From Candidatus Iainarchaeum sp. (GTDB taxonomy: Archaea; Iainarchaeota; Iainarchaeia; Iainarchaeales; CSSED10-239): a stretch of DNA of 13,022 nt. The translations under genes and the position numbers were made by a program. The notes under the pieces were generated by a model, which made no database searches, was not told the DNA's origin, and saw nothing but the letters and a program-made list of their open reading frames with translations. Within the stretch, counting starts at the first letter, position 1. Each line of letters opens with the position of its first letter. The stretch lies in assembly GCA_937968065.1 (NCBI GenBank), contig CALBUD010000036.1:1-13022 (forward strand). The letters run 5' to 3'. Shown piece after piece: positions 55-13,022 of the stretch.

Positions 55-819
55 TCATATTTTTTCAATTTCTCTTCTTAAAACATTATAATTTGCATCA
101 TAAGTCAAAGGATCAAACAAAAATAAATCAAATGGTTTTTTTGATAGATCTATAAAACAATTTCTATCATCAAGATCAATATCTCTTAAACCTTTTTTTT
201 TAAGTATTTCTTTTAGTTTAGAGAATTTTTGATTAATTTTTTTAACATCCTCTACATTAATCTTTTTTTTATTAACAACATCTCTTACAGTTGGAAGATA
301 AGAGAGTTCATAAACAATAAATGATTTTATAAGTTGTCTATGAAAAGGAAATTTTTTTCTATCTAAATAACTATCAAAAGCGAAATGAGGTTTTATTATT
401 TTAAAACCAATTTCTCTTGCATCTTTTTCAATTAGTCTTAAAGCAATTAATTCTTCAGTTAAAGATAATTCAACTTTATCTCTAGTTTCTTTTATAAAAA
501 ATCTTACTGGTTTTTTTTTATTAATAATTAAAACAAAACCATCACTTGCAAAAGAAGAATCTGTTCTTTTTTTATTAATAATTTGATTTGTAACTTTTAA
601 TATCTCAAATCTGTTTTTTTCATCAACAAATCTTTTTTCTTTTTTGTTATTTGATAAAAAATTAACAGCTTTAATAATTCCAGGATTTTCTCTTAATAAC
701 TCTCTTGCAAAATTACTATATACTATTTTTTTACCACCATACCTATTAGTCATGCTTTCTTTATAAGTATATCTATTAGGATTTTTTATAACTTTTACAT
801 TTCTTTTTAAAAGAGGCAT
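55..819 (-). CDS. hypothetical protein (possible atypical protein-kinase-like fold; motif-level only)
   Basis: 254-codon ORF with ATG at 817-819 and TGA at 55-57. It starts 29 nt downstream of the hisS stop, so co-transcription is plausible. I recognise no family with certainty. By eye there is a kinase-like motif order: SDGFVLII, FFIKE (K110), EELIALRLIE, hinge-like IVYEL, a catalytic-loop-like D-L-D-D-R-N (aa 215-220) and LFLFDP (D236). Confidence 0.6.
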   Translation of the reverse strand: MPLLKRNVKVIKNPNRYTYKESMTNRYGGKKIVYSNFARELLRENPGIIKAVNFLSNNKKEKRFVDEKNRFEILKVTNQIINKKRTDSSFASDGFVLIINKKKPVRFFIKETRDKVELSLTEELIALRLIEKDAREIGFKIIKPHFAFDSYLDRKKFPFHRQLIKSFIVYELSYLPTVRDVVNKKKINVEDVKKINQKFSKLKEILKKKGLRDIDLDDRNCFIDLSKKPFDLFLFDPLTYDANYNVLRREIEKI

Positions 820-848: not shown

Positions 849-2153
849 TTAAAGAGTTATTTCTTTTTTAACATCTTCTAAGTTTACTTTTTTTTCAATT
901 CCAGTTTTTATGTTTTTTAAAGATATTTTATTTTCAAAAATCTCATTTTCTCCTAAAAAACCAACATATGTGATACCAAGTTTATCTGCATACTCTATGT
1001 TTTTACTAACATTTCTTTTCAAAAGATCTATTGAAATATTTATTCCTTCTTTTCTTAATTTTTGTACAATTTCAATTGATTCTTTTATATTTTTATCTCC
1101 AATAGGAATTATAAAAAGATCAGCGGTTGTTTTTTTATACATTCCTTCTCTTTTCTTAATAATCTCCATGATTGGTTCAACTCCAAAAGCAACTCCAACA
1201 GCTGGATATTCTTTTTCTTCTTGTAGATATTTTCCAATCATCTGATCCCATCTTCCTCCACCTGCAATTGAAGAAGAAATAATTTTATCATCTTTTAAAA
1301 AAGCTTCAAAGATTGAACCTGTGTAATATCCAAGCCCTCTTGCAAGAGAAGGTAGAAAAACATAATCAACAGAATAATAATCAAGATATTTAAAAAGTTT
1401 CTTTAAAGAAGAGATTGCAGGGGTTGTCTTAATAACTTTATCTATAGCTTCTAGTTTTTCTAGATTGTTTCCTGAAACTGTTAATAGATTTAATAAAGAG
1501 TCAATTGTTTTTTCTTCAATTCCTTTCTCTTGTAGTTCTTTTTTAACACCTTCTCTGCCTGTTTTTTTAAGTTTATCAATAGTTATTATAACTGTATCTT
1601 GTTTTTTTTTATCAATTTTGTAAAAATCTAAAATATCTTGTAAAAGCTTTCTATTGTTTATTTCTATATTAACTTCTAAGTTTAATTTTTTAAAAACAAA
1701 ATCCATTAAAGAGATTATTTCTGCATCTGCAACTTCTTCTTTAACACCAACAATATCAACATCACATTGATAGAATTCTCTGTATCTTCCTGCCTTTATA
1801 GGACCATCTCTAAAAACAGATCCTATCTGATATCTTTTAAAAGGGAGTCTTGTTTGTGGGTTTTGTCCAATAAATCTTGCAAGTGCAAATGTAAATTCAT
1901 ATCTTAAACCTAAATCTCTGTTTCCTTGATCTTTAAATCTATAAATTTCTGAAACAGCATCAGAGTCTTCACCTGCTCCAAACTTTGCTTCTAGAATCTC
2001 TAATTTTTCTATGGTTGGTGTTTCAAGTGGTGAATATCCATAATTTTCAAAAATGTTTTTAATATTTGTAATAATCTTATCTCTTAAAATTTTTTCTTCA
2101 GGTGGAAAATCTCTAAACCCTTTTGGTGTTTCTAAAATTATTTTTTCTTTCAT
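849..2153 (-). CDS. hisS: histidine--tRNA ligase (class II aaRS, archaeal/eukaryal-type)
   Basis: 434-aa ORF carrying HisRS signatures: PKGFRDF near the N-terminus; LRYEFTFALARF (the LRYDLT-type His motif); motif 2 FKRYQIGSVFRDGPIKAGRYREFYQCDVDIVG; ARGLGYYTG; and motif 3 region GGGRWDQMIG. The C-terminus has an anticodon-binding-like segment (LFIIPIG...VQKLRKEGI...YADKLGI). Confidence 0.95.
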   Translation of the reverse strand: MKEKIILETPKGFRDFPPEEKILRDKIITNIKNIFENYGYSPLETPTIEKLEILEAKFGAGEDSDAVSEIYRFKDQGNRDLGLRYEFTFALARFIGQNPQTRLPFKRYQIGSVFRDGPIKAGRYREFYQCDVDIVGVKEEVADAEIISLMDFVFKKLNLEVNIEINNRKLLQDILDFYKIDKKKQDTVIITIDKLKKTGREGVKKELQEKGIEEKTIDSLLNLLTVSGNNLEKLEAIDKVIKTTPAISSLKKLFKYLDYYSVDYVFLPSLARGLGYYTGSIFEAFLKDDKIISSSIAGGGRWDQMIGKYLQEEKEYPAVGVAFGVEPIMEIIKKREGMYKKTTADLFIIPIGDKNIKESIEIVQKLRKEGINISIDLLKRNVSKNIEYADKLGITYVGFLGENEIFENKISLKNIKTGIEKKVNLEDVKKEITL

Positions 2154-2224: not shown

Positions 2225-2300
2225 TGGGGTCATAACCGGGATTTGAACCCGGGCCAGAGGCTCCACAGACCTCTATGCTAACCACTACACTATTATGACC
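2225..2300 (-). tRNA. tRNA-His (anticodon GTG) with encoded G-1 and 3' CCA
   Basis: The reverse complement reads GGTCATAATAGTGTAGTGGTTAGCATAGAGGTCTGTGGAGCCTCTGGCCCGGGTTCAAATCCCGGTTATGACCCCA. It folds as a cloverleaf: 7-bp acceptor GTCATAA/TTATGAC, an extra 5' G pairing with C73 (the His identity element), D stem GTGT/GCAT, anticodon stem GAGGT/GCCTC with loop CTGTGGA, and T arm CCGGG-TTCAAAT-CCCGG. It ends in CCA. Confidence 0.9.
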
Positions 2301-2728: not shown

Positions 2729-2998
2729 TTATAATTTACTCTTAAATTCTTTACCAACTTTAAATGAAACTGTTTTACTTGCAGCTATCTTCATAGACTT
2801 TCCTGTTTGTGGATTTCTACCCATTCTAGCAGCTCTTTTCTTAACTTTGAAAGTACCAAAACCAACTAATTGTAATTTTCCATCTTTTTTTACAATAGTT
2901 TTCATAGCATCTAAAGTAATATTAATAAACTCTTCAGCTTTTGATTTTGATAAATCTGTTTTCTTAACAACAGCTTCAACTAATGTACTTTTGTTCAT
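2729..2998 (-). CDS. hup: HU/IHF-family DNA-binding protein (bacterial-type histone-like protein)
   Basis: 89-aa ORF. MNKSTLVEAVVKKTDLSKSKAEEFINITLDAMKTIVKKDGKLQLVGFGTFKVKKRAARMGRNPQTGKSMKIAASKTVSFKVGKEFK matches the HU signature GFGTF-x-V-x-x-R-x-A-R-x-GRNP-x-TG-x-x-x-x-I-x-A-x-x-x-x-x-FK-x-GK along its full length. Confidence 0.92.
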   Translation of the reverse strand: MNKSTLVEAVVKKTDLSKSKAEEFINITLDAMKTIVKKDGKLQLVGFGTFKVKKRAARMGRNPQTGKSMKIAASKTVSFKVGKEFKSKL

Positions 2999-3025: not shown

Positions 3026-3108
3026 AATCTATAAGGTATTAAATTAATATTAATACTAAAGATTTTTAAATAGATGTTTTTTTTTCCTTTATTTATAGGC
3101 TTTAACAG

Positions 3109-3182
3109 TGGATCTATTGGGATTTGAACCCAAGTTTTAGGCTCCGCAAGCCTACGTGCTATCCAGACTACACCATAGATCC
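3109..3182 (-). tRNA. tRNA-Arg (anticodon GCG), no encoded CCA
   Basis: The reverse complement reads GGATCTATGGTGTAGTCTGGATAGCACGTAGGCTTGCGGAGCCTAAAACTTGGGTTCAAATCCCAATAGATCCA. It has a perfect 7-bp acceptor GGATCTA/TAGATCC, D stem GTGT/GCAC, anticodon stem TAGGC/GCCTA with loop TTGCGGA, and T arm TTGGG-TTCAAAT-CCCAA. The discriminator is A. Confidence 0.9.
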
Positions 3183-3208: not shown

Positions 3209-3571
3209 TTACTTGCGTTTCTTTGCTGCTGCTTGACGAGAAATTGTTGAAGTTCCCCAAAAGAAAACAGACACAAGTCCAAACCCTAAGAAAAGATATG
3301 CCATCATTATAGCACTTGTAAGATAAAGATATTTATAAACTAAAAAATAAGCAATAACACCAGTTACAATAAATGTTAATATATGTTTTTCTCCAAAAGC
3401 TTGAGCTGTGTTTTCATATATAAAAAAAATAATAAGTCCCATGATAACATATCTAACAAGAGGAAACATTGCCATAGCTCCAGGAACTATTAATACAGCT
3501 ATAACAGAAATAATTAGTATTTTTACAATTAATGGAAGTGCACCAATAAATCCTTTTTGATTATTTACCAT
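3209..3571 (-). CDS. small integral membrane protein (about 4 predicted TM helices), unknown function
   Basis: 120-aa ORF starting 3 nt after the stop of the preceding gene. It has four hydrophobic stretches (FIGALPLIVKILIISVIAVLIV, FPLVRYVIMGLIIFFIY, ILTFIVTGVIAYFLVY, AIMMAYLFLGFGLVSVFFW) and a basic C-terminal tail RQAAAKKRK. I recognise no family. Confidence 0.75.
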   Translation of the reverse strand: MVNNQKGFIGALPLIVKILIISVIAVLIVPGAMAMFPLVRYVIMGLIIFFIYENTAQAFGEKHILTFIVTGVIAYFLVYKYLYLTSAIMMAYLFLGFGLVSVFFWGTSTISRQAAAKKRK

Positions 3572-3574
3572 AAT

Positions 3575-3946
3575 TTATCTACCTGGTGGCTTTGGTCCCA
3601 TTTTTTTAACCAATTTATTTCTTGCAGCAGCATCTGTTGCTCCTGGTGCTCCATGAGTTTCCATTTTTCTACCCATCATCTCTTCTGGAGAACCACCAGC
3701 ACTAATAAAGAAAAAATCAACAAATATTCCAGCAACTCCTACAGATAAAAGAATATAAAAAACATATCCTACTCTAAAAACAGGCCAAAACAAAAATATC
3801 ATAACAATAACTGTAAGACTTATAAGCACTAAAGCTAAAGTGTTATGAGTAACTCTTCTTCTAATAAAAGCTATGATTGCTAATATTAAAAATATCTGTA
3901 AGATAAAATCAAAATCTTGTAAAAAACCTAAATAAATGTTTAACAT
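3575..3946 (-). CDS. small integral membrane protein (about 3 predicted TM helices) with a charged Gly/Pro/Ala-rich C-terminal tail, unknown function
   Basis: 123-aa ORF starting 14 nt after the giant gene stop. Hydrophobic stretches are ILQIFLILAIIAFI, LALVLISLTVIVMIFLFWPVF and VGYVFYILLSVGVAGIFVDFFFISA. A soluble tail follows: GGSPEEMMGRKMETHGAPGATDAAARNKLVKKMGPKPPGR. I recognise no family. Confidence 0.75.
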   Translation of the reverse strand: MLNIYLGFLQDFDFILQIFLILAIIAFIRRRVTHNTLALVLISLTVIVMIFLFWPVFRVGYVFYILLSVGVAGIFVDFFFISAGGSPEEMMGRKMETHGAPGATDAAARNKLVKKMGPKPPGR

Positions 3947-3960
3947 ATTTTTTTCTTTTT

Positions 3961-6900
3961 TTAATCTATTTGGATAGGATTATTTATTGTGTTACAAATA
4001 AAATCTTGAGAATAATTTTCTTGTATCTCTAAAAGTTCTTCTTCTGTAAAATTAACTTCTTCTTCAACCCATTTAACATAAGTGTTTGTTGGTGATTTAA
4101 AGATACATGCTTTCTCATCTTTAATATATTCAAAGATACCTTTTATTGTTTTTAAATTTTCAAGATCAGAACCAATAACATGTGCTTGAGAGCTAAAGGT
4201 TATATCTTTTGTTCCTTGAAGATTGTTCTTTGAAAATATTTTTGTATATTCATTATTATTAAATCCTGTTGTTTTAAAAATAACAGAGTCTATAGGTAAA
4301 TCATTAACGATTGGAAGATATAACATTGCACTTATACTGTTTGTATCATTAATATTATTTGTTTCTAAAACAAATCTGTTTCCTTGAATGCTGCTTGCAT
4401 ATAATTGATCTGTTAGATAAGAGATGTTATTATCCCATCTTAAAAAGGAACTATCAAAACCACTTATAAGAGCATCTAAAGGATTATCTAATAGATAAAG
4501 ATTATATGAAAAGTTAGTTTCTAGAGGGCATCCAATATTTGCATATAAAGGTATAGGATAAGAAGGGGTATATTCAAGTTGTACAAAATCTTGTATTTTT
4601 CTAAGATCTAATATTTTTCCTTGAGAGTTAATTGTTTGTTTAATAGCTCCTAGATGATTGTTATTTGTAAGAACTAAAGTTGTTATAGGATCTTCTTTTA
4701 AAATATTTTCTAAAGTAAATGATGGATTAATAGAAATTTCATCTCCTTCAGCAGAAGAAATAGAAATTCCATACCCTAAACTTTCTGAGTTATTTAATCT
4801 ACCATTTAATGGCATATAATGGAAAACACTAAGTTCTGATGAAGGTATACTTCTTTCAAAAGATAATCTTATATCTATTCTTTTATCATTTAGATCATTC
4901 TTATAACTTACATCTTCATCTCCATAAACTTTAACTTCATAAACTCCTGGTCTAAAAACAGATTCTCCTGAATCTAAAGAAATTTTAAAATTATCATCTA
5001 TAACTGCTTGTTCTGTAAATAAATCTTGATTTGTAGGTTTATTAAATTTAGCATAAATACTTAAAGAATCATTCTCTCTATAATCTATAAAATCTTTTAA
5101 AAGATCTTTTGAGATTCCATCATTCATTAATTTTATATAGAATGATTCTTGAGATCCATCTTGTATCTTATGGAATATTGAAATTAACATTTGAAGAGAA
5201 TCACAAGCATATTTTTCACTCATGTTATCAAGAGAATCTCCAATACATTTAGTCGTCCAAGATTCAGTTTCTTCTCCCCAATTAAAAAAGACTTTTGGAA
5301 GAGCATCTTCTCCTGTGTAACAAACATCTTCTTCTTCTTCACAAAATCCTAATATAAAGATGTCTTCACCTAAATAAGTTCCACCAACACCTACACAAAA
5401 TTCATTTTCAAGATCACTTTCATAATAATCCATATCTATTTTTTTAATCTCATAACTTAAAGATTTTTCTTTTTCAAAAGATTTATCAAGACCTTGTAAA
5501 TTAAAACTAAATATTGTGTTTGTCTCTTCTGAAAAAACAGTTTCTTCTAAAGAAGAATAGTTTGAATAATATCTTAAAGTTTTATTTATAAATTCTTGAG
5601 AAAGTAAAGTACTTCCTGAAAAATTATCTACAAACAAATATTCTTGAGAAGGATTTAATGAAACTTCTGATAATAAATCAACATCATAATTATTTGCTAA
5701 GTTTCTTAAGTTATATGTTTTTCTACTATCACAATTTGTATTTGAACAAAATATAGTTAAAACATTACTTGTATTTTCTGTAATTTCAACTAATGAATCT
5801 TTATCAAATACTTTAATATTAAAAATTTCTTTTAAAGAAACAACAGTTTCATCTTTCTTTAATTTAAAATCAATAATTATAATTTCTTCTTGTGAAGGAT
5901 AACTATTAAAGTTTTCATTAATTTTAAAATTTAAAATTATTTCTAAATTATTTAAAGGTTGATTTGAAAAGTTTATAATTGAAGCTTCTAAAGCATCAGA
6001 ATCTATAAAACTTGGAAGAGAACTAAAAGATACTTCTTCTAAAATAATATCAGATGTGCTTGTTGAAAATAAATATTTTAATTCTATTTCTGGATTTAAA
6101 TCTTTTATAAGCTCTAAACTATGGTTGTTATTCTCTTGGTTATAAAAAACTCCTTTTTTAGGGGAAGGGAAAGAAACTTCATAATTTATCTGTCCAAGAT
6201 TAATTGCAAAAACATTAGAAAAAACATCTAACATCTGTGTTATGCTTGGAAATTTAAGTTCATTTCTAAATAAAGCTTTTGTACTTAAATTACCTTCAGT
6301 TGGAAGAGTATCTGATAAAAATATTTTTGTAAAAATACTTGTGTTCTTAGAACTTAAAGACCTTGGAATTGGAGAGTTTTCTTCTAAAAGATATTCATTA
6401 ATCTCTTCAACTTCAAAGTAAGATACTTCATTCGGTATAAAAGAAATATTTTCTAAAGAAGGAACAAGTGTATTTTTCTTTTCAATCTCATATTCTTTAC
6501 TAACCTCTCCTTTAACAAATCTATCATTAACCTTAAGATAATAAGTTGAAAAGTTAAGAGGTTGTCCTGGAACCATAAATCCAGAATTAATTATTTTTTC
6601 TTTTCTTATAGTATTTCCAGGAATTCCAGCACTTGCATCAAATATAAATGAAAAGGTTACTTTTTTGGACATATCTTGTATATTAAAAATAAGCTCTTGA
6701 ACATTTAAGATACCTTGTTGGTTTGTTTTTCCTAAAAGAATATTATCTTCAACTCCTTGTATCTGATATTTTATAGAAACATCATTTACAGGACTTCCAA
6801 AATCATCTAAGACTTTAAAAGAAAGATTGTTTGAACCTACAAATATTTGTTCTGGTGAAATATCTATTAAAAACTTTTCATCAGAATTATAAGCATATAA

Positions 6901-9900
6901 CTTTGTATTAATTAAAGGAAAATTATTTAAAATATTTGTAATCATTCTTGGTTCTGAATAATTTGCAATTTCAAAAAAACCTTCTGGTTTAAACAAAGTA
7001 TATTTTTTAAGAAGATATCCTCTTTGAGCATCTATATTTAATAAAGAATAATTAGTATCTTCAACAGATATATGATTATAAATATTATTTATATTTCCTG
7101 GAGAACTATCAAGAGAAGAGGTATATCCATAACTTAAATATTTAAGATTATTATTTGTGTTGCTTGAAGTTTGTAGAATATTTCCTGTTCTTGAATCTGA
7201 TTTTAGATAAATATATTCTAAATCATATTTATATGTAGAATTAATATCTATCTTATGTCCATCTAAAAAAGAAGGAAGCACACTGTTATTTATATCTTTT
7301 ATCTTAGTATTATAAATATAATCTGAGTTACTAAACGGTATTTGGTATTTATTTGTTTTAGCATAAAAATATCCTTCAGGATAGAATGGTATCTGGTTCC
7401 AAGAAGTTGGAAGTTCAGGATCATAACTATAGGTGCTTCCATAAATAACACTTAAAGCTCTATAATTAATAATATAATTTTCAATTGGTGCTATTGGTGT
7501 TTCTTTAAACTTAATGTTTAATGAAAATTCAATTATTTGTGGTTTTAATTCTCTAAAATCAATTTCTAACCATTTATAATTATTAAGATTATAATCTAAA
7601 GATTTATCTAAATTATAATTATTTTGGAAAAGAGTTGTATTAAAATCAGGAACATGCTCTCCTGAAAATCTATATCCTCTTTTAACCTCTATATCTTGTG
7701 ATAAAATATCTTCTGAAACAAAAGAAACTGAATCTTCATTTATGAAAATTTTATTTCCAGCTCTAATATGTGCTAACTTTATTTCTGAGTCTTTAAGACA
7801 AGAGATGTATTTTAATTTTATTCTATATTCTTTAGATAAACCATTTTCAATAAAATCAATATTATTAACTACAAAGGAACCTGTTTTATCAAACAAACCA
7901 AGAACTTCTATTTTTCCATCACTACAAGAGGTTAAAGATAATAAAGTTATTTCTTTAAAGATTTCAACTCCAGAAACTAAATTAATAAGTTCTGTTTGAT
8001 AAGTTGTATAACCATCAGCAGAAATAACAGCATAAACTTTATTTATGTTCTCTCCAGTGAAGGTATATTGTTTATTATTATCTACATCAACTGTTACATA
8101 TTCATTTATTTGTAAATGTTGAGAAGTATAAAAATTAATATCATATGAGATGTTAGGATTTACTTTTAGATTTAATGTTTTAGGAATATCTAAAAGATTT
8201 ACATCTAATTTTAAGAAAGAATTAACATCAAGTCTTTCAATTTCTGAAACACCTTGTTTATCAAGAACAGAATGTATTGCATAAGCATAATATTCTCTAT
8301 TTGCTCTTTGCATTGTAAAATTAACATCTCCAAATTGATTTGTATATTTAGGTTCTTGATTTACTAAAACAAAATCATCTTCAAATTCTCTATAAAGATA
8401 CACTCTTGCACTATTTACATTAATCTCTTGATTTTTAACATTTACACCAATAACTCCAGAATTAAGTTCTGAAGAATATTCAAGATAAACAATTATGTTT
8501 TTATCAATTCCATCAACTAAAACTGGATCTGGTTGAAGATAACCGTTTTCTTCAGTATTAAGAACTCTTACTCTATAAGTATAAAAGTCTAAAACATCAA
8601 AGATTGCATGACTTTTATTTCTTAAAACACTGCCAAGAGAAGAATAACTTTCATTTGAATCTTTTAATTTATATTCTAAAGTAATATCTGCAAAAACAGG
8701 TTCTTCAGTTTCACTATCTAATAAAGTAACATCAATATATCCTGGAATACCAATACTACAAGAACCATCTTCATTAAAATGAAGGAATGGTTTTAAATGT
8801 TGGTTTGAACAATCGATTTGGTTATTTATACAAAATGGTTTATATCTATCTTGAGAACAATCAAAGTCAAGTAAATCATCAATTGTGAATAATATAAATT
8901 CTACATTTGTTGTGTTATCTTTAACAACAGAAAAAGGTCCTTTTCTTGGATAGGTTAGATAACCTTCTTTTGCTGCTGTTACAAGATATTGTTTAGGTTC
9001 TAGATTAAATTGATTAACACCATAAATATCTGTTGTTGTAGAATCAAATGGTAATAATGGTGTTGATTGAGAATAATTATAAACTGTTAATTGTGCATTT
9101 GAAAGAGGATTATTTGAAATGTTTTTAACACTAATCCCTAAGGTTCCTTTATCATTATTTATTCTTATTAAAACTATTTTATTATTTTCTGGAACTACTT
9201 GATTTGTTATAGAATTAAATTGTGTAGAGGTTACAGAAACTCTTAAAGAACCACATCCTGCAGGAGTTTTAACTAAAACTTTTCCTGTAGATACCAAGGT
9301 TGTTCTAGGTTCTGGTTGTTTTTCTGTATTTGTACATGAAAAGGTTGTGTTTAATGTAACATTATTTATTAAAATATCATTGTTTTCAACAAAAATAATA
9401 TCTCTTTCTTGTGCTGGGTTTACTGGTATTATTGGATTTTCAGTATCAATGGTTAAAGTTATAATATGTCTTAAATTATTTTTATTTAATTTAAATTCAT
9501 ATTCTTTTGTGTTATAATGTTCTTTTGAAACAATTAATTTTACATTTTGTTTTCTAGATTTTAAATCTCTAAAAATAACTTCACCAAAAATATTTGTTTC
9601 AAGAGAAGAAACTTCTTTATCTTTTATTTGTAAACTTACAAGAGCTTCACTTACTGGTGTGTTCGATTGATCATAAACTTCAACTGATATTGTCCAAGTT
9701 TTTGAAAAAGATAAAGTTCCTGAGATTATAAGGTATAATAATAATACAAGTAATATTAAAAACAAAATAAAACTTGGAAATTTTTTATCAATTTTATCTG
9801 TAAGTTTATTTATTGGTAAAATTTTACTAATACCATCTACACAACTATAATAAATATCTTCAAAAAAGAAATAAATCATTCTAAAAAAATCTTTTATTTT

Positions 9901-10308
9901 TGTTAAAAAACCGACTTTAGAAACTGAGGTTAGATTTTTCTTTTTTTCTTCTTTCTTTAAAGGTTCTTCTTTTTTTATAGGTTCTTCTTTTTTTTCTTCT
10001 TTCTTTAAAGGTGCTTCTTTCTTTTCATCTACAGAAATTTTTTCTTTTTTATTTTTAATAGAGTATGATAATTCTTTTAAGATTTGTTCTTTTGAAAGTT
10101 CAGTTGTATTTTTCTTTAAAGTATCTTTTAAAGGTAACTTATTATCTTGTATCATCTTTACAACTAAAGAAGTTACTTTTTGATTATATCCTTGAGATAA
10201 AACAGCATCTTTAATCTCATCTATTGTATATTTTTGTGTTTTATTAGATAGAAGATCATATAATTTTTCTGCATCTATTTTATCTTTTGATTTTTTAAAT
10301 AATGACAT
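3961..10308 (-). CDS. giant (2115 aa) single-pass membrane-anchored surface protein with repeated beta-sandwich-like modules, unknown function
   Basis: An uninterrupted 6348-nt ORF in a genome where stop triplets are very frequent. The N-terminal 176 aa or so are Lys/Glu-rich and predicted cytoplasmic. A single hydrophobic span FPSFILFLILLVLLLYLIISG (aa 177-197, nt 9718-9780) is preceded by DKIDKK, which fits positive-inside topology. The remaining 1900 aa or so form an Asn/Ser/Thr-rich ectodomain. It contains at least five carboxypeptidase-regulatory-like/PEGA-like patterns, for example ISVEVYDQSNTPVSEALVSL...IFGEVIFRDL...VKLIVSKEHY, GISVKNISNNPLSNAQLTVY...YLVTAAKEGY, GVNVKNQEINVNSARVYLY...FGDVNF and FKVLDDFGSPVNDVSIKY...TNQQGILNV. 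I see no catalytic motif. Confidence 0.9.
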   Translation of the reverse strand: MSLFKKSKDKIDAEKLYDLLSNKTQKYTIDEIKDAVLSQGYNQKVTSLVVKMIQDNKLPLKDTLKKNTTELSKEQILKELSYSIKNKKEKISVDEKKEAPLKKEEKKEEPIKKEEPLKKEEKKKNLTSVSKVGFLTKIKDFFRMIYFFFEDIYYSCVDGISKILPINKLTDKIDKKFPSFILFLILLVLLLYLIISGTLSFSKTWTISVEVYDQSNTPVSEALVSLQIKDKEVSSLETNIFGEVIFRDLKSRKQNVKLIVSKEHYNTKEYEFKLNKNNLRHIITLTIDTENPIIPVNPAQERDIIFVENNDILINNVTLNTTFSCTNTEKQPEPRTTLVSTGKVLVKTPAGCGSLRVSVTSTQFNSITNQVVPENNKIVLIRINNDKGTLGISVKNISNNPLSNAQLTVYNYSQSTPLLPFDSTTTDIYGVNQFNLEPKQYLVTAAKEGYLTYPRKGPFSVVKDNTTNVEFILFTIDDLLDFDCSQDRYKPFCINNQIDCSNQHLKPFLHFNEDGSCSIGIPGYIDVTLLDSETEEPVFADITLEYKLKDSNESYSSLGSVLRNKSHAIFDVLDFYTYRVRVLNTEENGYLQPDPVLVDGIDKNIIVYLEYSSELNSGVIGVNVKNQEINVNSARVYLYREFEDDFVLVNQEPKYTNQFGDVNFTMQRANREYYAYAIHSVLDKQGVSEIERLDVNSFLKLDVNLLDIPKTLNLKVNPNISYDINFYTSQHLQINEYVTVDVDNNKQYTFTGENINKVYAVISADGYTTYQTELINLVSGVEIFKEITLLSLTSCSDGKIEVLGLFDKTGSFVVNNIDFIENGLSKEYRIKLKYISCLKDSEIKLAHIRAGNKIFINEDSVSFVSEDILSQDIEVKRGYRFSGEHVPDFNTTLFQNNYNLDKSLDYNLNNYKWLEIDFRELKPQIIEFSLNIKFKETPIAPIENYIINYRALSVIYGSTYSYDPELPTSWNQIPFYPEGYFYAKTNKYQIPFSNSDYIYNTKIKDINNSVLPSFLDGHKIDINSTYKYDLEYIYLKSDSRTGNILQTSSNTNNNLKYLSYGYTSSLDSSPGNINNIYNHISVEDTNYSLLNIDAQRGYLLKKYTLFKPEGFFEIANYSEPRMITNILNNFPLINTKLYAYNSDEKFLIDISPEQIFVGSNNLSFKVLDDFGSPVNDVSIKYQIQGVEDNILLGKTNQQGILNVQELIFNIQDMSKKVTFSFIFDASAGIPGNTIRKEKIINSGFMVPGQPLNFSTYYLKVNDRFVKGEVSKEYEIEKKNTLVPSLENISFIPNEVSYFEVEEINEYLLEENSPIPRSLSSKNTSIFTKIFLSDTLPTEGNLSTKALFRNELKFPSITQMLDVFSNVFAINLGQINYEVSFPSPKKGVFYNQENNNHSLELIKDLNPEIELKYLFSTSTSDIILEEVSFSSLPSFIDSDALEASIINFSNQPLNNLEIILNFKINENFNSYPSQEEIIIIDFKLKKDETVVSLKEIFNIKVFDKDSLVEITENTSNVLTIFCSNTNCDSRKTYNLRNLANNYDVDLLSEVSLNPSQEYLFVDNFSGSTLLSQEFINKTLRYYSNYSSLEETVFSEETNTIFSFNLQGLDKSFEKEKSLSYEIKKIDMDYYESDLENEFCVGVGGTYLGEDIFILGFCEEEEDVCYTGEDALPKVFFNWGEETESWTTKCIGDSLDNMSEKYACDSLQMLISIFHKIQDGSQESFYIKLMNDGISKDLLKDFIDYRENDSLSIYAKFNKPTNQDLFTEQAVIDDNFKISLDSGESVFRPGVYEVKVYGDEDVSYKNDLNDKRIDIRLSFERSIPSSELSVFHYMPLNGRLNNSESLGYGISISSAEGDEISINPSFTLENILKEDPITTLVLTNNNHLGAIKQTINSQGKILDLRKIQDFVQLEYTPSYPIPLYANIGCPLETNFSYNLYLLDNPLDALISGFDSSFLRWDNNISYLTDQLYASSIQGNRFVLETNNINDTNSISAMLYLPIVNDLPIDSVIFKTTGFNNNEYTKIFSKNNLQGTKDITFSSQAHVIGSDLENLKTIKGIFEYIKDEKACIFKSPTNTYVKWVEEEVNFTEEELLEIQENYSQDFICNTINNPIQID
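9933..10026 (-). repeat. in-frame Lys/Glu/Pro low-complexity repeat within the cytoplasmic N-terminus of the giant protein
   Basis: The peptide is EKKEAPLKKEEKKEEPIKKEEPLKKEEKKK. At DNA level the 19-mer ttcttctttctttaaaggt occurs twice (9946-9964 and 9994-10012), 48 nt or 16 codons apart. A degenerate copy lies between them. Confidence 0.6.
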
Positions 10309-10330: not shown

Positions 10331-12769
10331 TTATCTAAAGATTGGTGTGAATGGAAAATTAAAGCTTTTACTTCCATTATCGCTAGTTATTGTTCCATCT
10401 AATCTATAATTTTGATAATAACAATATAATTCTTTATCTGAAAGATTCATTAAAGGATCATAATACCATTCAAGAACCTCTCCTGTTACCTTATACTCAT
10501 AAAGTCCTAATGTTTGGTTATACTCACCAACAATCACTTCTTTATTTTTATATAAAGCATCATATGGAGCAACAACAAAAGGATTTAAAGAAGGAATCTT
10601 TGTAAACTCAGAATTGTTTTTTGAATAAAATATAAATAAATTATTTTGATTTATCTGTCCAGGAAATGTTGAATAAAGAACATAGTCTTTGGAAAATTTA
10701 TATCCTGTGTTATCAGGCATAATATTTATTTCTTTAAGATCATAATAATCACATAATGAACAATTTGGATTATCAGTTAAAGTCTTATTAATGTTTGAAG
10801 GAATTCTATCTTTAAAATCATCTTGGTTTGCAGATTTTATAGTGACTGCTTTAGTGGTATAATTTAGATTTGAAGGAGGTTTTTGTATATAACAAGAATC
10901 TTGAACAAGAATTGAACGATTATCTAAATTTTGTTCTGTATACTCAACATCTGATAGATCTTCAAGACATATATTATAGTTAGAAATACATGCAGAACAT
11001 TCAGGTATTCCATTTAAACATTCTTGATTATAAGAAATACAATCTTCTCCTGAATAAAGAGTACAACAATCTTCACAAACCCCATCATCATCTAAACACT
11101 GATATTTATCATCTTCACATTGTTGTATTTTAGAATCTCTTTCTTTTATATAAGGTAAATTTTCTGTTTTAACTTCTTGTGGAAGATAACTTCCTGTTTG
11201 TAAAGTTTTTATAAATAATTGATTTGAATTAATATTTTCTTTATAAGTAATTAAATTTATTTTCATATCTTTTGTTCTATTTATTAAATAATCAAATCTA
11301 AGATTAAGTGTTTCATTTAAATTTCCATTTGGTTGATCTTGTCCTGTTAATCCTTTATAACCAAAGAAACCATCTTTTACATCTATATTAAAAATATGAT
11401 TATTTTCAAGTAATTTAATATTGATGTCTCCATTATTTATTCCTCCTGCATTTCCACCCTTACCTTTATATCCATCATTTGTGTGTTGGTGTTTACGTCC
11501 TCCGTTCCCACCCTCTCCTGCGTCTAAAGATAAATTAAAAGTCCCATTATTAATTACTTTTGCAATTTGAGAAATATTTATAGAACCGCCATTTCCACCA
11601 AATCCACCATGTACAGTATTTGATGTACCAGAGGCCTTTCCTCTATCTCTTCCAGTATCTCCACCATCTCCTCCATTTCCAGGAGTTAATTTTAGTTCTA
11701 ATTTTGAATTTTTATTATTAATTATAGTATTTACATTAAAAGATAAATTTCCTGCATCTCCACCAAATCCACCATGACCAATATCACCTACATATGGTTT
11801 TGATTTTTTTTGATCAAGTCCTTTCCCACCAGGTCCAGCATTACCAGTAGATAAATTAAAATTTAATTCTTTTAAATTATTTATTTCATCTATAATTATT
11901 TCAACATCTCCAGAGTCTCCTCCTCTTCTACCATCTAAATGACCTGTAGAACCAGGATTTCCAACCTTTCCATTTCCTGTTTTAATATCTAAATTAAAAG
12001 TACCTTCATTTTTTATATTTTCTAATTGTAGTTTAAAATTTTCAGAATGTGCAGTTCCTGGATTCATTAAAACCTCACCAATTGTTGGAAAATCAAAATA
12101 TACATCTTCATAAGTAGTTCCAGAATATTTAAAATCTAAAGTACTATTTTCTTTTATAATCACATCTTTTAATTTAACTTCAACAGTGTTATTTGTTTCT
12201 TTGTTTAAAATTAAAACATCTTCTTTAACATTTAATTCTGTAAAACCTTTTACAACTAAATCTAAACTTAGATCAAATTTTTTATTAAAAGATTCATTAG
12301 TGTTTAAAACAGATAAAGTTATATCTTTTCCATTTGAAATTAAAGAATCAATTCCTTGAATTTTAAATTCTTGTTTTTGTTCTTTTATCTCAAGTTCTAA
12401 ATCAGCTCCAAGCTCTAAATTAATTTTTTTATCAGAACAAGTATTATTAAAAACTAAATCATTACTTTTTTTTATTGAAAGTGGATTAGGATTAGTGTTT
12501 TGAGAAATACAACTATTTACACAACTATTATAACCATCAAAAAAATCAGTTGGACAAGAAGAAACACAAGAATCAAGAGAAGAATAAACATCTGAAGTTT
12601 TTAAAATATAAAAATAACAATCCTCTCCAGAACATCCTTGAAAAATAATTGTTTCTTGTACAGGGGTTCCTCGTAAACTTAAATTACAAGTTTCAAAAGA
12701 AAAAACATATGATTGTATAAATATAATAAATAATATTAAAACAATTGTTAAAATAATTTTTTTTATCAT
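10331..12769 (-). CDS. secreted 812-aa protein with Gly-rich tandem repeats flanked by Cys-rich modules, unknown function
   Basis: The N-terminus is signal-peptide-like: MIKKIILTIVLILFIIFIQSYVFS. There are 8 Cys in aa 28-111. Gly-rich repeats of about 55 aa span aa 246-480. There are 10 Cys in aa 551-601 (QQCEDDKYQCLDDDGVCEDCCTLYSGEDCISYNQECLNGIPECSACISNYNIC). There is no C-terminal hydrophobic anchor; the protein ends FNFPFTPIFR. Its stop codon lies 22 nt upstream of the giant gene start. Confidence 0.9.
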   Translation of the reverse strand: MIKKIILTIVLILFIIFIQSYVFSFETCNLSLRGTPVQETIIFQGCSGEDCYFYILKTSDVYSSLDSCVSSCPTDFFDGYNSCVNSCISQNTNPNPLSIKKSNDLVFNNTCSDKKINLELGADLELEIKEQKQEFKIQGIDSLISNGKDITLSVLNTNESFNKKFDLSLDLVVKGFTELNVKEDVLILNKETNNTVEVKLKDVIIKENSTLDFKYSGTTYEDVYFDFPTIGEVLMNPGTAHSENFKLQLENIKNEGTFNLDIKTGNGKVGNPGSTGHLDGRRGGDSGDVEIIIDEINNLKELNFNLSTGNAGPGGKGLDQKKSKPYVGDIGHGGFGGDAGNLSFNVNTIINNKNSKLELKLTPGNGGDGGDTGRDRGKASGTSNTVHGGFGGNGGSINISQIAKVINNGTFNLSLDAGEGGNGGRKHQHTNDGYKGKGGNAGGINNGDINIKLLENNHIFNIDVKDGFFGYKGLTGQDQPNGNLNETLNLRFDYLINRTKDMKINLITYKENINSNQLFIKTLQTGSYLPQEVKTENLPYIKERDSKIQQCEDDKYQCLDDDGVCEDCCTLYSGEDCISYNQECLNGIPECSACISNYNICLEDLSDVEYTEQNLDNRSILVQDSCYIQKPPSNLNYTTKAVTIKSANQDDFKDRIPSNINKTLTDNPNCSLCDYYDLKEINIMPDNTGYKFSKDYVLYSTFPGQINQNNLFIFYSKNNSEFTKIPSLNPFVVAPYDALYKNKEVIVGEYNQTLGLYEYKVTGEVLEWYYDPLMNLSDKELYCYYQNYRLDGTITSDNGSKSFNFPFTPIFR
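11330..12034 (-). repeat. coding tandem repeats (about 4.5 units of about 50-55 aa) alternating beta-strand-like INN-x-hxhxh segments with Gly-rich loops
   Basis: Units aligned by eye: (1) NEGTFNLDIKTGNGKVGNPGSTGHLDGRRGGDSGDVEIIID; (2) INNLKELNFNLSTGNAGPGGKG...GHGGFGGDAGNLSFNVNT; (3) IINNKNSKLELKLTPGNGGDGGDTG...VHGGFGGNGGSINIS; (4) VINNGTFNLSLDAGEGGNGG...GKGGNAGGINNGDINIK; (5) NNHIFNIDVKDGFFGYKG. The DNA 17-mer ccaccaaatccaccatg, which encodes HGGFGG, occurs at 11595-11611 and 11760-11776. These are exactly 165 nt or 55 codons apart. Confidence 0.7.
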
Positions 12770-12820: not shown

Positions 12821-13022
12821 TCATCTCTCTAAATTAAATAAAATATTTATTCTACTATCTTCATAACCTACTCTATTAAAAATAAATCTAAAACTATTTA
12901 TGCTTGATTGATTAACAGAGGTTGGAGAATTAATAACTGGTTTTATAAAAATAATATTATTTCTAATTTTAAAATCTAAAGTAGATAATACAGAAGAATC
13001 ACTTTCAAAAGTACCCTCTGAA
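12821..13022 (-). CDS. 3' end of an upstream ORF truncated by the window edge (hypothetical protein)
   Basis: A minus-strand frame is open for 66 codons from the window edge (13021) to TGA at 12821-12823. It encodes SEGTFESDSSVLSTLDFKIRNNIIFIKPVINSPTSVNQSSINSFRFIFNRVGYEDSRINILFNLER. This is a long open stretch for such AT-rich DNA. It is on the same strand as, and 51 nt upstream of, the 812-aa gene. The composition (N/S/I-rich) resembles the neighbouring surface proteins. Confidence 0.45.
   Translation of the reverse strand, partial: SEGTFESDSSVLSTLDFKIRNNIIFIKPVINSPTSVNQSSINSFRFIFNRVGYEDSRINILFNLER

Follow-up and report, generated by a model that had tools for sequence, protein, structure and literature searches.

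A candidate signal-anchored giant surface protein of Iainarchaeota and the juxtamembrane module it shares with a large family of giant archaeal proteins

DPANN archaea have tiny genomes, yet Candidatus Forterrea multitransposorum devotes about 5% of its genome to five membrane-anchored proteins of more than 1,800 amino acids (aa), which are encoded in a 42-kb region and for which a role in cell-cell interaction has been proposed (Probst and Banfield 2018, PMC5905446). That paper treats the Forterrea giants in one sentence and covers neither their domains nor an N-terminal module, a C-terminal head, partner genes or distribution, so that the nearest described entity to the protein reported here has been mentioned and not analysed. 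We studied a 13,022-nucleotide stretch of Candidatus Iainarchaeum sp. DNA (GenBank assembly GCA_937968065.1, contig CALBUD010000036.1), referred to as the window, which carries a complete gene for a protein of 2115 residues, referred to as the giant. One of the Forterrea proteins is its direct ortholog, with 48% identity over the full length and the same operon (locus L008 in the complete genome CP045477.1). We put the probability at roughly 60% that the giant is a cell-surface protein of this archaeon (Iainarchaeota; Diapherotrites, DPANN), signal-anchored by a single membrane pass, with its N-terminus inside and its C-terminus outside the cell.

Other large surface proteins share some of its properties. 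The candidate surface proteins of Nanobdella and the adhesin-like proteins of methanogens are likewise very large and extracellular, consist of tandem immunoglobulin (Ig)-like or prealbumin-like domains and are thought to act in the envelope or in host contact. Their descriptions give them a Sec signal peptide at the N-terminus and, in many cases, a transmembrane helix at the C-terminus, whereas the giant has an N-terminal module with its sole hydrophobic span. Canonical archaeal S-layer and surface glycoproteins combine a Sec signal peptide with a C-terminal transmembrane segment or a PGF-CTERM or PEF-CTERM signal, and neither of these two elements is found in the giant. Sulfolobus SlaB and Staphylothermus tetrabrachion are membrane-anchored stalks with distal assembly, as we propose for the giant. 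Their stalks have a C-terminal anchor and coiled coils, while the giant would be anchored at its N-terminus and its predicted stalk is all-beta; a Foldseek match to SlaB (8qox_B) was weak and generic. Nanohaloarchaeota have SPEARE-type giants, which combine domains for serine proteolysis, adhesion and restriction-endonuclease activity; the Pfam and NCBIfam matches of the giant include neither a protease nor an endonuclease family. Gram-positive pilins, MSCRAMM and TIE proteins, which were among the top Foldseek matches, have only the prealbumin-like domains in common with it, and the giant lacks an LPxTG motif. The ESPR of autotransporters and two-partner secretion proteins, YSIRK-G/S and KxYKxGKxW are extended signal peptides of giant bacterial surface proteins. 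Like the module of the giant, they have a conserved motif on the cytoplasmic (in our case, predicted cytoplasmic) side of a hydrophobic core, at the N-terminus and in many paralogues. They differ in that the module has no sequence similarity to them and no match to their Pfam models, is archaeal, precedes a core of transmembrane length and has only a candidate cleavage site.

A database search returned 19 homologues of the giant, most of them 2064-2220 aa long with 29-54% identity at 93-100% coverage. Sixteen of the 19 are full-length and align with the giant colinearly from end to end, and the conservation of cysteines given for the giant refers to this alignment. Since these colinear homologues lie on independent contigs, assembly chimerism, which the first-pass annotation had listed as something to be excluded, can be dismissed. 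An internal start at Met144 is also excluded because Met144 is not conserved, whereas the N-terminal 60 residues show protein-level conservation in 12 loci that all use the same start codon. When one genome per GTDB species was scanned, 25 loci were found, labelled as Candidatus Iainarchaeum, Candidatus Forterrea multitransposorum or an unclassified archaeon. About 20 Iainarchaeota genomes, among them the complete one of Ca. Forterrea, have the giant as a single-copy ortholog at a fixed locus beside housekeeping genes, and its operon recurs with it. The membrane-proximal half of the protein is better conserved than the distal stalk. A profile of the full-length alignment gave 0 matches at E<=1 among PDB sequences.

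The best conserved feature of the giant had been overlooked at first reading. It is not a cytoplasmic head but a juxtamembrane module of about 45 residues together with the hydrophobic span that follows it (aa 131-199). In order, this unit comprises an aromatic amphipathic helix (YFFFEDxYY), the motif P-I-x-K-x-x-D-x-I-D-K-x-x-PSF and about 20 hydrophobic residues; in the giant itself the motif reads IYFFFEDIYYSCVDGISKILPINKLTDKIDKKFPSF and the hydrophobic core follows. The 30-residue stretch with the highest conservation in the protein is aa 151-180 (mean majority fraction 0.75), and in the module alignment (A5) seven columns are invariant and eight nearly so. For the aromatic part the helical hydrophobic moment is 0.56-0.58, which suggests an in-plane interfacial helix. 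AlphaFold2 (AF2) places two helices at aa 134-176 and a transmembrane helix at aa 179-195, both with a low predicted local distance difference test score (pLDDT). No Pfam or NCBIfam model matches the module.

The same module was detected at the start of many other giant proteins. P0020 (2553 aa), a relative of the paralogous giant encoded upstream, starts directly with the motif, and a regular-expression scan of the loci located it 6-56 residues from the start of other giant open reading frames (ORFs) of 1488-2529 aa in the higher-GC loci L021-L030, with two such ORFs per locus in L028 and L029. A first module profile search of a protein database yielded 17 short fragments only. An exhaustive HMMER search of 1.84 billion representatives with the module profile matched 908 cluster representatives at E<=1e-3, 511 of them at E<=1e-10. 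In 143 of the 150 best matches the module starts at most 20 residues from the N-terminus. Among 135 new module-bearing representatives, 98 have at least 1000 aa and 46 at least 2000 aa, the longest being 3251 aa. The few named representatives are called "carboxypeptidase regulatory-like domain-containing protein" and are assigned to Candidatus Diapherotrites or "archaeon", and Pfam identified only prealbumin-like domains in module-bearing representatives. A profile of the C-terminal head, built from the subfamily of the giant only, detected this head in 36 of the 46 module-bearing representatives of at least 2000 aa, always at the extreme C-terminus (median 29 residues from the end). The co-occurrence of head and module defines an N-terminal module, a beta-sandwich stalk and a C-terminal head as a superfamily architecture, and on the strength of these profile matches the giant is a member of a large superfamily of giant proteins in archaea that has so far gone unannotated. 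For the superfamily the module is defined as the aromatic amphipathic helix, D-x-I-D-x(2-4)-PSF and about 20 hydrophobic residues. A further, tentative suggestion is that the amphipathic helix, the turn (P-I-Y-K-V-I-D-P-I-D-K-V-V-PSF) and the transmembrane helix form a sorting or anchoring signal not recognised before, which would be reserved for the giant surface proteins of Iainarchaeota and their DPANN relatives and would be an archaeal counterpart of YSIRK and ESPR; this is a possibility which we hold to be more doubtful than the proposed anchoring of the giant itself. Module-bearing giants were also seen on contigs in metagenome-assembled genomes labelled Falkowbacteria, Chloroflexota and Thaumarchaeota (L023, L026 and L028); these are probably mis-binned archaeal (DPANN) contigs. 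ORFs adjoining the giants in L026 and L028 resemble a helicase of uncertain type.

The hydrophobic span following the module is the only candidate membrane anchor of the giant. A Kyte-Doolittle scan with a 19-residue window gives one strong peak, which starts at aa 177 with a score of 3.02, the next best reaching 1.40. Across 146 family members the hydrophobic core after PSF measures about 20-22 residues, the first charged or strongly polar residue lies at a median of +26, positions +23 to +30 are rich in G, S, P, T and A, and the first beta strand begins at about +31 to +36. The first 25 residues of the giant are hydrophilic, and it therefore has no classical signal peptide; hydropathy and manual inspection, the only means applied, revealed no short cleavable N-terminal signal peptide. 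A regular expression for a class III signal peptide, with a [KR][GA] leader before a hydrophobic helix, also had no match; the span is preceded by K-K-F-P-S-F and lies 176 residues from the start. At the other end, the C-terminal 40 residues are hydrophilic (mean Kyte-Doolittle hydropathy -0.60), with no hydrophobic tail and no PGF or PEF motif that could serve as a C-terminal anchor or sorting signal. A motif scan found no LPxTG, RTX, CxEQ, PGF/PEF or class III signal.

The distribution of charge and cysteines points to the orientation of the protein. The first 176 residues contain 23% Lys and have a net charge of +12, while the remaining 1918 residues, the putative ectodomain, have a net charge of -103, and the 15-residue flanks of the span carry +3 on the N-terminal and 0 on the C-terminal side. 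Long, highly charged, disordered extensions ahead of the module in relatives support an N-in orientation. Conserved cysteines, mostly even in number, are located C-terminal of the span, and this fits extracellular disulfides. On these three lines of sequence evidence we favour an N-in/C-out topology. The first-pass annotation had described a protein with no cleavable-looking signal peptide, a single strong span (aa 177-197) with basic residues on its N-terminal side and, in a departure from many archaeal surface proteins, no C-terminal anchor, and all of this is borne out here. It had also concluded a type II (N-in) topology, with which charge bias, charged extensions and Cys pairs agree, the support being indirect.

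The region between the span and the head appears to be an array of about 15 beta-sandwich domains. AF2 was run on two halves of the giant with a 19-sequence alignment and gave a mean pLDDT of 72.4 for aa 1-1130 and 79.3 for aa 1131-2115. Pfam matches on the stalk were to CarboxypepD_reg, SpaA and Big_1, and searches of Pfam and NCBIfam with the whole protein and ten stalk segments found nothing beyond such prealbumin-like domains. The giant has at least one CarboxypepD_reg domain above the gathering threshold (PF13620; 50.2 bits, cutoff 32.3); the strongest match lies at aa 393-473 and a second at aa 206-278. The name that NCBI gives to relatives describes this one domain and not the whole protein. 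Both stretches confirm the carboxypeptidase-regulatory-like patterns that had been recognised by eye in the first 500 aa or so after the span. Such patterns had also been reported near aa 1150-1200, where there is indeed a match (aa 1159-1203), weak and below threshold, to a different family, Big_1. Cysteines C325/C352 and C1521/C1526 of the stalk are invariant and C484, C493, C500 and C517 nearly so. Both half-models were compared with the PDB using Foldseek, the C-terminal half also with BFVD. This fold search, which like structure prediction had been proposed as a check at first pass, matched tandem Ig-like arrays only, including hydin-type ciliary proteins, alpha-2-macroglobulin macroglobulin (MG) domain arrays, a TIE protein, Gram-positive pilins, integrins, cadherins, SlaB and the HPI S-layer protein. 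TM-scores were about 0.06-0.41, and the fold similarity is therefore generic. We assume that the stalk forms an extended rod.

Beyond a low-confidence, Cys-rich hinge at about aa 1626-1660, AF2 predicts a mixed, mostly beta head at aa 1663-2105. The C-terminal 479 aa have no match in Pfam or NCBIfam. BLASTP shows homology between the C-terminal 486 residues and the end of the upstream giant (E=1e-10), which has the Cys motif as well, and the distant giants in L021, L022, L024, L028, L029 and L030 also have homologous C-termini. Six cysteines are invariant (C1638, C1656, C1663, C1688, C1702 and C2068), which fits a head stabilised by disulfides. The first five account for the acidic Cys-containing segment that the first-pass annotation had picked out in this part of the protein. 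That annotation could name no pattern in more than half of the ectodomain. By AF2 this region is mostly a beta-sandwich array; in particular, the C-terminal 900 aa or so are not one unnamed stretch but the end of this array followed by a head of about 480 aa common to paralogues and distant relatives.

Ahead of the module, the giant has an N-terminal extension with the helical-looking segment and the KKEE-P repeat that had been noticed before the span. The helical part is a predicted three-helix bundle. It is present in 13 of the 16 aligned homologues and, in 12 loci, at the start of the ORF. P0008 and P0009 lack it, in P0015 it is replaced, and L014, L016 and L018 have a shortened form. The linker that follows has the lowest conservation of the protein and many indels, and its KKEE-P repeat (about aa 95-123) is also visible in the DNA, as a tandem repeat at 9942-10054. 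Where other members of the superfamily have an extension, it consists of unrelated charged low-complexity sequence in place of the bundle. The N-terminal 90 aa of five orthologues had no match in Pfam or NCBIfam, a bundle profile produced only insignificant EF-hand-like matches in the PDB (E>=0.06), and no candidate scored when the protein database was searched with this profile. By sequence comparison, bundle and K/E/P-rich linker are a subfamily add-on and not the conserved feature of the wider family.

The giant is the fourth gene in a tightly packed operon. This begins beyond the window with a paralogous giant and continues with genes for a small secreted protein and an 812-aa, Gly-rich one that is secreted too; after the giant come two small membrane proteins, TM1 and TM2. 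Gaps within the window are 22 nt (812-aa gene to giant), 14 nt (giant to TM1) and 3 nt (TM1 to TM2), and gene order is identical at the related loci inspected. TM1 identity is 47-84% across most loci and 30% in the most distant, and its conserved polar tail reads GGSxEEMMGKKMETHGTPGATExAARNxLVKKMGxxPPGR. Both TM1 and TM2 are better conserved between species (up to 84-85% identity) than the giant, and we found no family for either. They are absent from L021-L030, beside distant module-bearing giants, and were rejected as general partners of the module; because they occur only downstream of orthologues of the giant, they are subfamily-specific partners rather than general module readers. The upstream giant (L001:560-7069) is a paralogue of the giant (E=1e-10). 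Coordinates of all features are collected in Table 1.

Table 1. Features annotated in the window, with positions in the giant where they apply and the evidence for each
Feature	Window position	Strand	Residues of the giant	Evidence
Giant gene, complete	3961..10308	(-)	1-2115	ATG to stop, 2115 aa; ORF list and translation
Three-helix bundle, subfamily-specific add-on, putatively cytoplasmic	10144..10287	(-)	8-55	AF2 helices 8-20, 29-38, 43-55, pLDDT ~78
Lys/Glu/Pro-rich, length-variable disordered linker with one conserved helix (KEKILKELS, aa 73-84)	9919..10143	(-)	56-130	pLDDT 27-44
Juxtamembrane module: aromatic amphipathic helix (IYFFFEDIYY...) and P-I-N-K-L-T-D-K-I-D-K-K-F motif	9778..9918	(-)	131-177	Highest conservation, hydrophobic moment, profile search
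PSF-capped hydrophobic span, single predicted transmembrane helix (signal-anchor)	9712..9777	(-)	178-199	Kyte-Doolittle peak 3.02; core length in 146 family members
Array of ~15 predicted beta-sandwich (prealbumin/Ig-like) domains, with 4-Cys insert at aa 484-517	5440..9702	(-)	203-1623	AF2, Pfam, Foldseek, cysteines
Cys-containing head, mixed but mostly beta, no hydrophobic tail	3964..5421	(-)	1630-2115	AF2 secondary structure and cysteines
812-aa secreted protein, N-terminal signal peptide, Gly-rich GGxGGxGG repeats	10331..12769	(-)		Alignment A2; found by tblastn in most of L001-L020
Small secreted protein gene, 3' end only (66 codons), cut by window edge	12821..13021	(-)		Translation
TM1, 123 aa, three hydrophobic segments, conserved polar basic C-tail	3575..3946	(-)		Directly downstream of giant orthologues in 16 loci
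TM2, 120 aa, polytopic membrane protein, distant paralogue of TM1	3209..3571	(-)		40-85% identity in 16 loci
tRNA-Arg(GCG)	3108-3182	(-)		
Bacterial-type HU/IHF DNA-binding protein gene	2729-2998	(-)		Pfam Bac_DNA_binding, E=1e-29
tRNA-His(GTG)	2225-2299	(-)		
Histidyl-tRNA synthetase gene	849-2153	(-)		
254-aa basic ORF	55-819	(-)		

In the model we prefer, the module would hold the protein in the membrane by means of the amphipathic helix on the cytoplasmic face, a Pro/Asp/Lys-rich turn and the PSF-capped transmembrane helix of about 20 residues, and it possibly also sorts or clusters the protein. A rod of about 15 beta-sandwich domains would project outward from the cell, with the disulfide-stabilised C-terminal head at its distal tip. 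The subfamily would have gained the three-helix bundle and charged disordered linker ahead of the module, on the side taken to be cytoplasmic, and the giant would work with its operon partners in envelope architecture or cell-cell contact. Its most likely function would be to build the outer envelope of the cell or to mediate contact with other cells or with a substrate. Of this picture, the domain anatomy, the conservation pattern, paralogy, synteny and family size are shown by the data, while the topology, an uncleaved anchor, the rod shape and the function are inferred. Several observations speak against parts of this model. The AF2 confidence of the module and transmembrane helix is low (pLDDT 40-50). 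N-glycosylation sequons in the ectodomain number 33 against an expected 29 +/- 4.7, and with no enrichment they were dropped as evidence of topology. Foldseek also matches compact MG-domain proteins, and the AF2 inter-domain geometry is unreliable (predicted TM-score, pTM, 0.42-0.46). In the ortholog P0015 (L004:10001-10550), an extension that is about 140 residues long and contains several hydrophobic segments (KKPWLAWIPIFNMF) takes the place of the three-helix bundle, and an odd number of membrane passes in this extension would conflict with a simple N-in model for P0015. Finally, the small and Pro-rich composition at +23 to +30 after PSF makes a signal-peptidase site possible.

This last point is part of a different explanation, in which module and span together form an unusually long, conserved, cleavable signal peptide, comparable in function to the ESPR, YSIRK or KxYKxGKxW extensions, and the mature protein is released from the membrane and held on the surface by partners such as TM1/TM2, the 812-aa protein or the paralogous giants. 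The position of the motif and the hydrophobic stretch at the extreme N-terminus in nearly all of the best relatives is what one would expect from a leader, as are the enrichment of small residues and Pro just past the core, AxA-like strings in many members, and a first beta strand only about 8-12 residues beyond the core. The core itself, at 20-22 residues, is of transmembrane length and exceeds typical h-regions, no (-3,-1) or AxA motif is fixed in position in the 146 family members, and some close orthologues have Asn where the giant has its candidate -1 Ser. This combination of core length and the absence of a position-fixed AxA favours a signal-anchor. Cleavage would also leave the protein without any other anchor, and extensions of 100-190 residues ahead of the module would be very unusual for a cleaved leader. 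We therefore favour an anchor left uncleaved and regard cleavage as unlikely.

Somewhat less doubtful is the idea that the giant is an S-layer or canopy component rather than an adhesin, with paralogous N-anchored stalks whose heads pack side by side into a lattice at a distance from the membrane, like tetrabrachion with the opposite polarity; in architecture it overlaps with the signal-anchored model. A single-copy ortholog at a fixed locus by housekeeping genes, the better conserved membrane-proximal half, the same head in paralogues and the Foldseek matches to SlaB (8qox_B, E=4e-6) and Deinococcus HPI S-layer would all be in keeping with it, and according to a 2023 preprint an S-layer protein has yet to be determined for any DPANN archaeon (10.1101/2023.10.27.564410). 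The SlaB and HPI matches are, however, to generic Ig arrays with TM-scores of 0.07-0.18, and a stalk of about 15 domains would, by our estimate, be far longer than usual pseudo-periplasmic spacings. Nor was any S-layer family model among the Pfam and NCBIfam matches. A transmembrane receptor, with the three-helix head coupling the intracellular state and the ectodomain in an inside-out or outside-in direction, seems improbable to us. The bundle is a folded, conserved unit in most close orthologues, the predicted cytoplasmic-face module is the most conserved part and the conserved polar tail of TM1 could be a partner, but the linker is disordered and length-variable, searches of Pfam, NCBIfam and PDB profiles found no signalling domain, and TM1/TM2 persist where the giant has no bundle (L004, L016). 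Since the bundle is absent or replaced in several orthologues and 143 of the 150 best module-bearers (95%) have no extension, inside-out coupling, at which the first-pass annotation had hinted, is unlikely as a core function. A membrane-anchored protease trap like alpha-2-macroglobulin, comparable to bacterial ECAM/YfhM, is the least probable of the alternatives and a very remote one. Long Foldseek alignments to alpha-2-macroglobulins, A2ML1, CD109, ECAM, TEP1 and C3/C5 (E down to 5e-11), weak Pfam matches to MG4 and bMG3 (E 0.015-0.04) and a faint MG4 match on the upstream paralogue suggested it. The Foldseek TM-scores of 0.06-0.13 indicate only the generic likeness of beta-sandwich arrays, a C[GLAS]EQ scan for the CxEQ thioester motif was negative in all 19 family members, and the AF2 secondary structure contains no helical region like a thioester-containing domain (TED).

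The 812-aa protein of the operon contains about 250 residues of GGxGGxGG-type repeats interleaved with I-x-N-x-G-x-h-N-h motifs, resembling a beta-helix or beta-roll, as well as Cys-rich inserts and a conserved C-terminal domain ending in FPFTPxF; Pfam, NCBIfam and PDB profile searches found no match for it. At the position of the small secreted protein there is a gene of about 120 aa, with a signal peptide in L001, and genes are called there in L003 and L008 too. The upstream giant in L001, which otherwise looks extracellular, has Gly-rich hydrophobic segments in mid-protein, for example SGVSIGIIASSILAEIGIVGALLVVPVWGWIGGGALLAIAALAP, and P0020 has similar ones at residues ~1400-1640 (MTGAMIGATIGGLIGKGF / WFTLAGAVIGGVLAYM), which the giant lacks. 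These could be internal transmembrane hairpins or membrane-active segments.

The window as a whole has a G+C content of 25%, with all substantial genes on the minus strand. Neighbours at related loci include prolyl-tRNA synthetase (ProRS) with ProRS-C_1, an ATP-dependent DNA ligase and a KaiC-like ATPase, consistent with an archaeon. The gene for a bacterial-type HU/IHF protein keeps its position beside the surface-protein operon in all inspected Iainarchaeota loci. The tRNA-His gene lies immediately upstream of that for histidyl-tRNA synthetase on the same strand, and the tRNA-Arg gene is 27 nt downstream of TM2. No family matches the 254-aa basic ORF, and none of the 30 related loci has a counterpart of it; it may be strain-specific or mobile.

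A sequence definition is now available for a superfamily of 908 cluster representatives, consisting of the N-terminal module, the beta-sandwich stalk and the distal head. The module could become a family model and replace the label "carboxypeptidase regulatory-like domain-containing protein". That the most conserved part of these proteins lies on the predicted cytoplasmic face suggests that very large surface proteins of archaea go through a hitherto unrecognised step in which they are targeted, inserted or clustered. If the module is indeed a dedicated signal, machinery in the membrane or the cytoplasm would recognise it in order to insert, position or cluster proteins of 2000-3000 residues, and together with the shared C-terminal head the module would characterise a new class of modular archaeal fibres for the envelope or for attachment.

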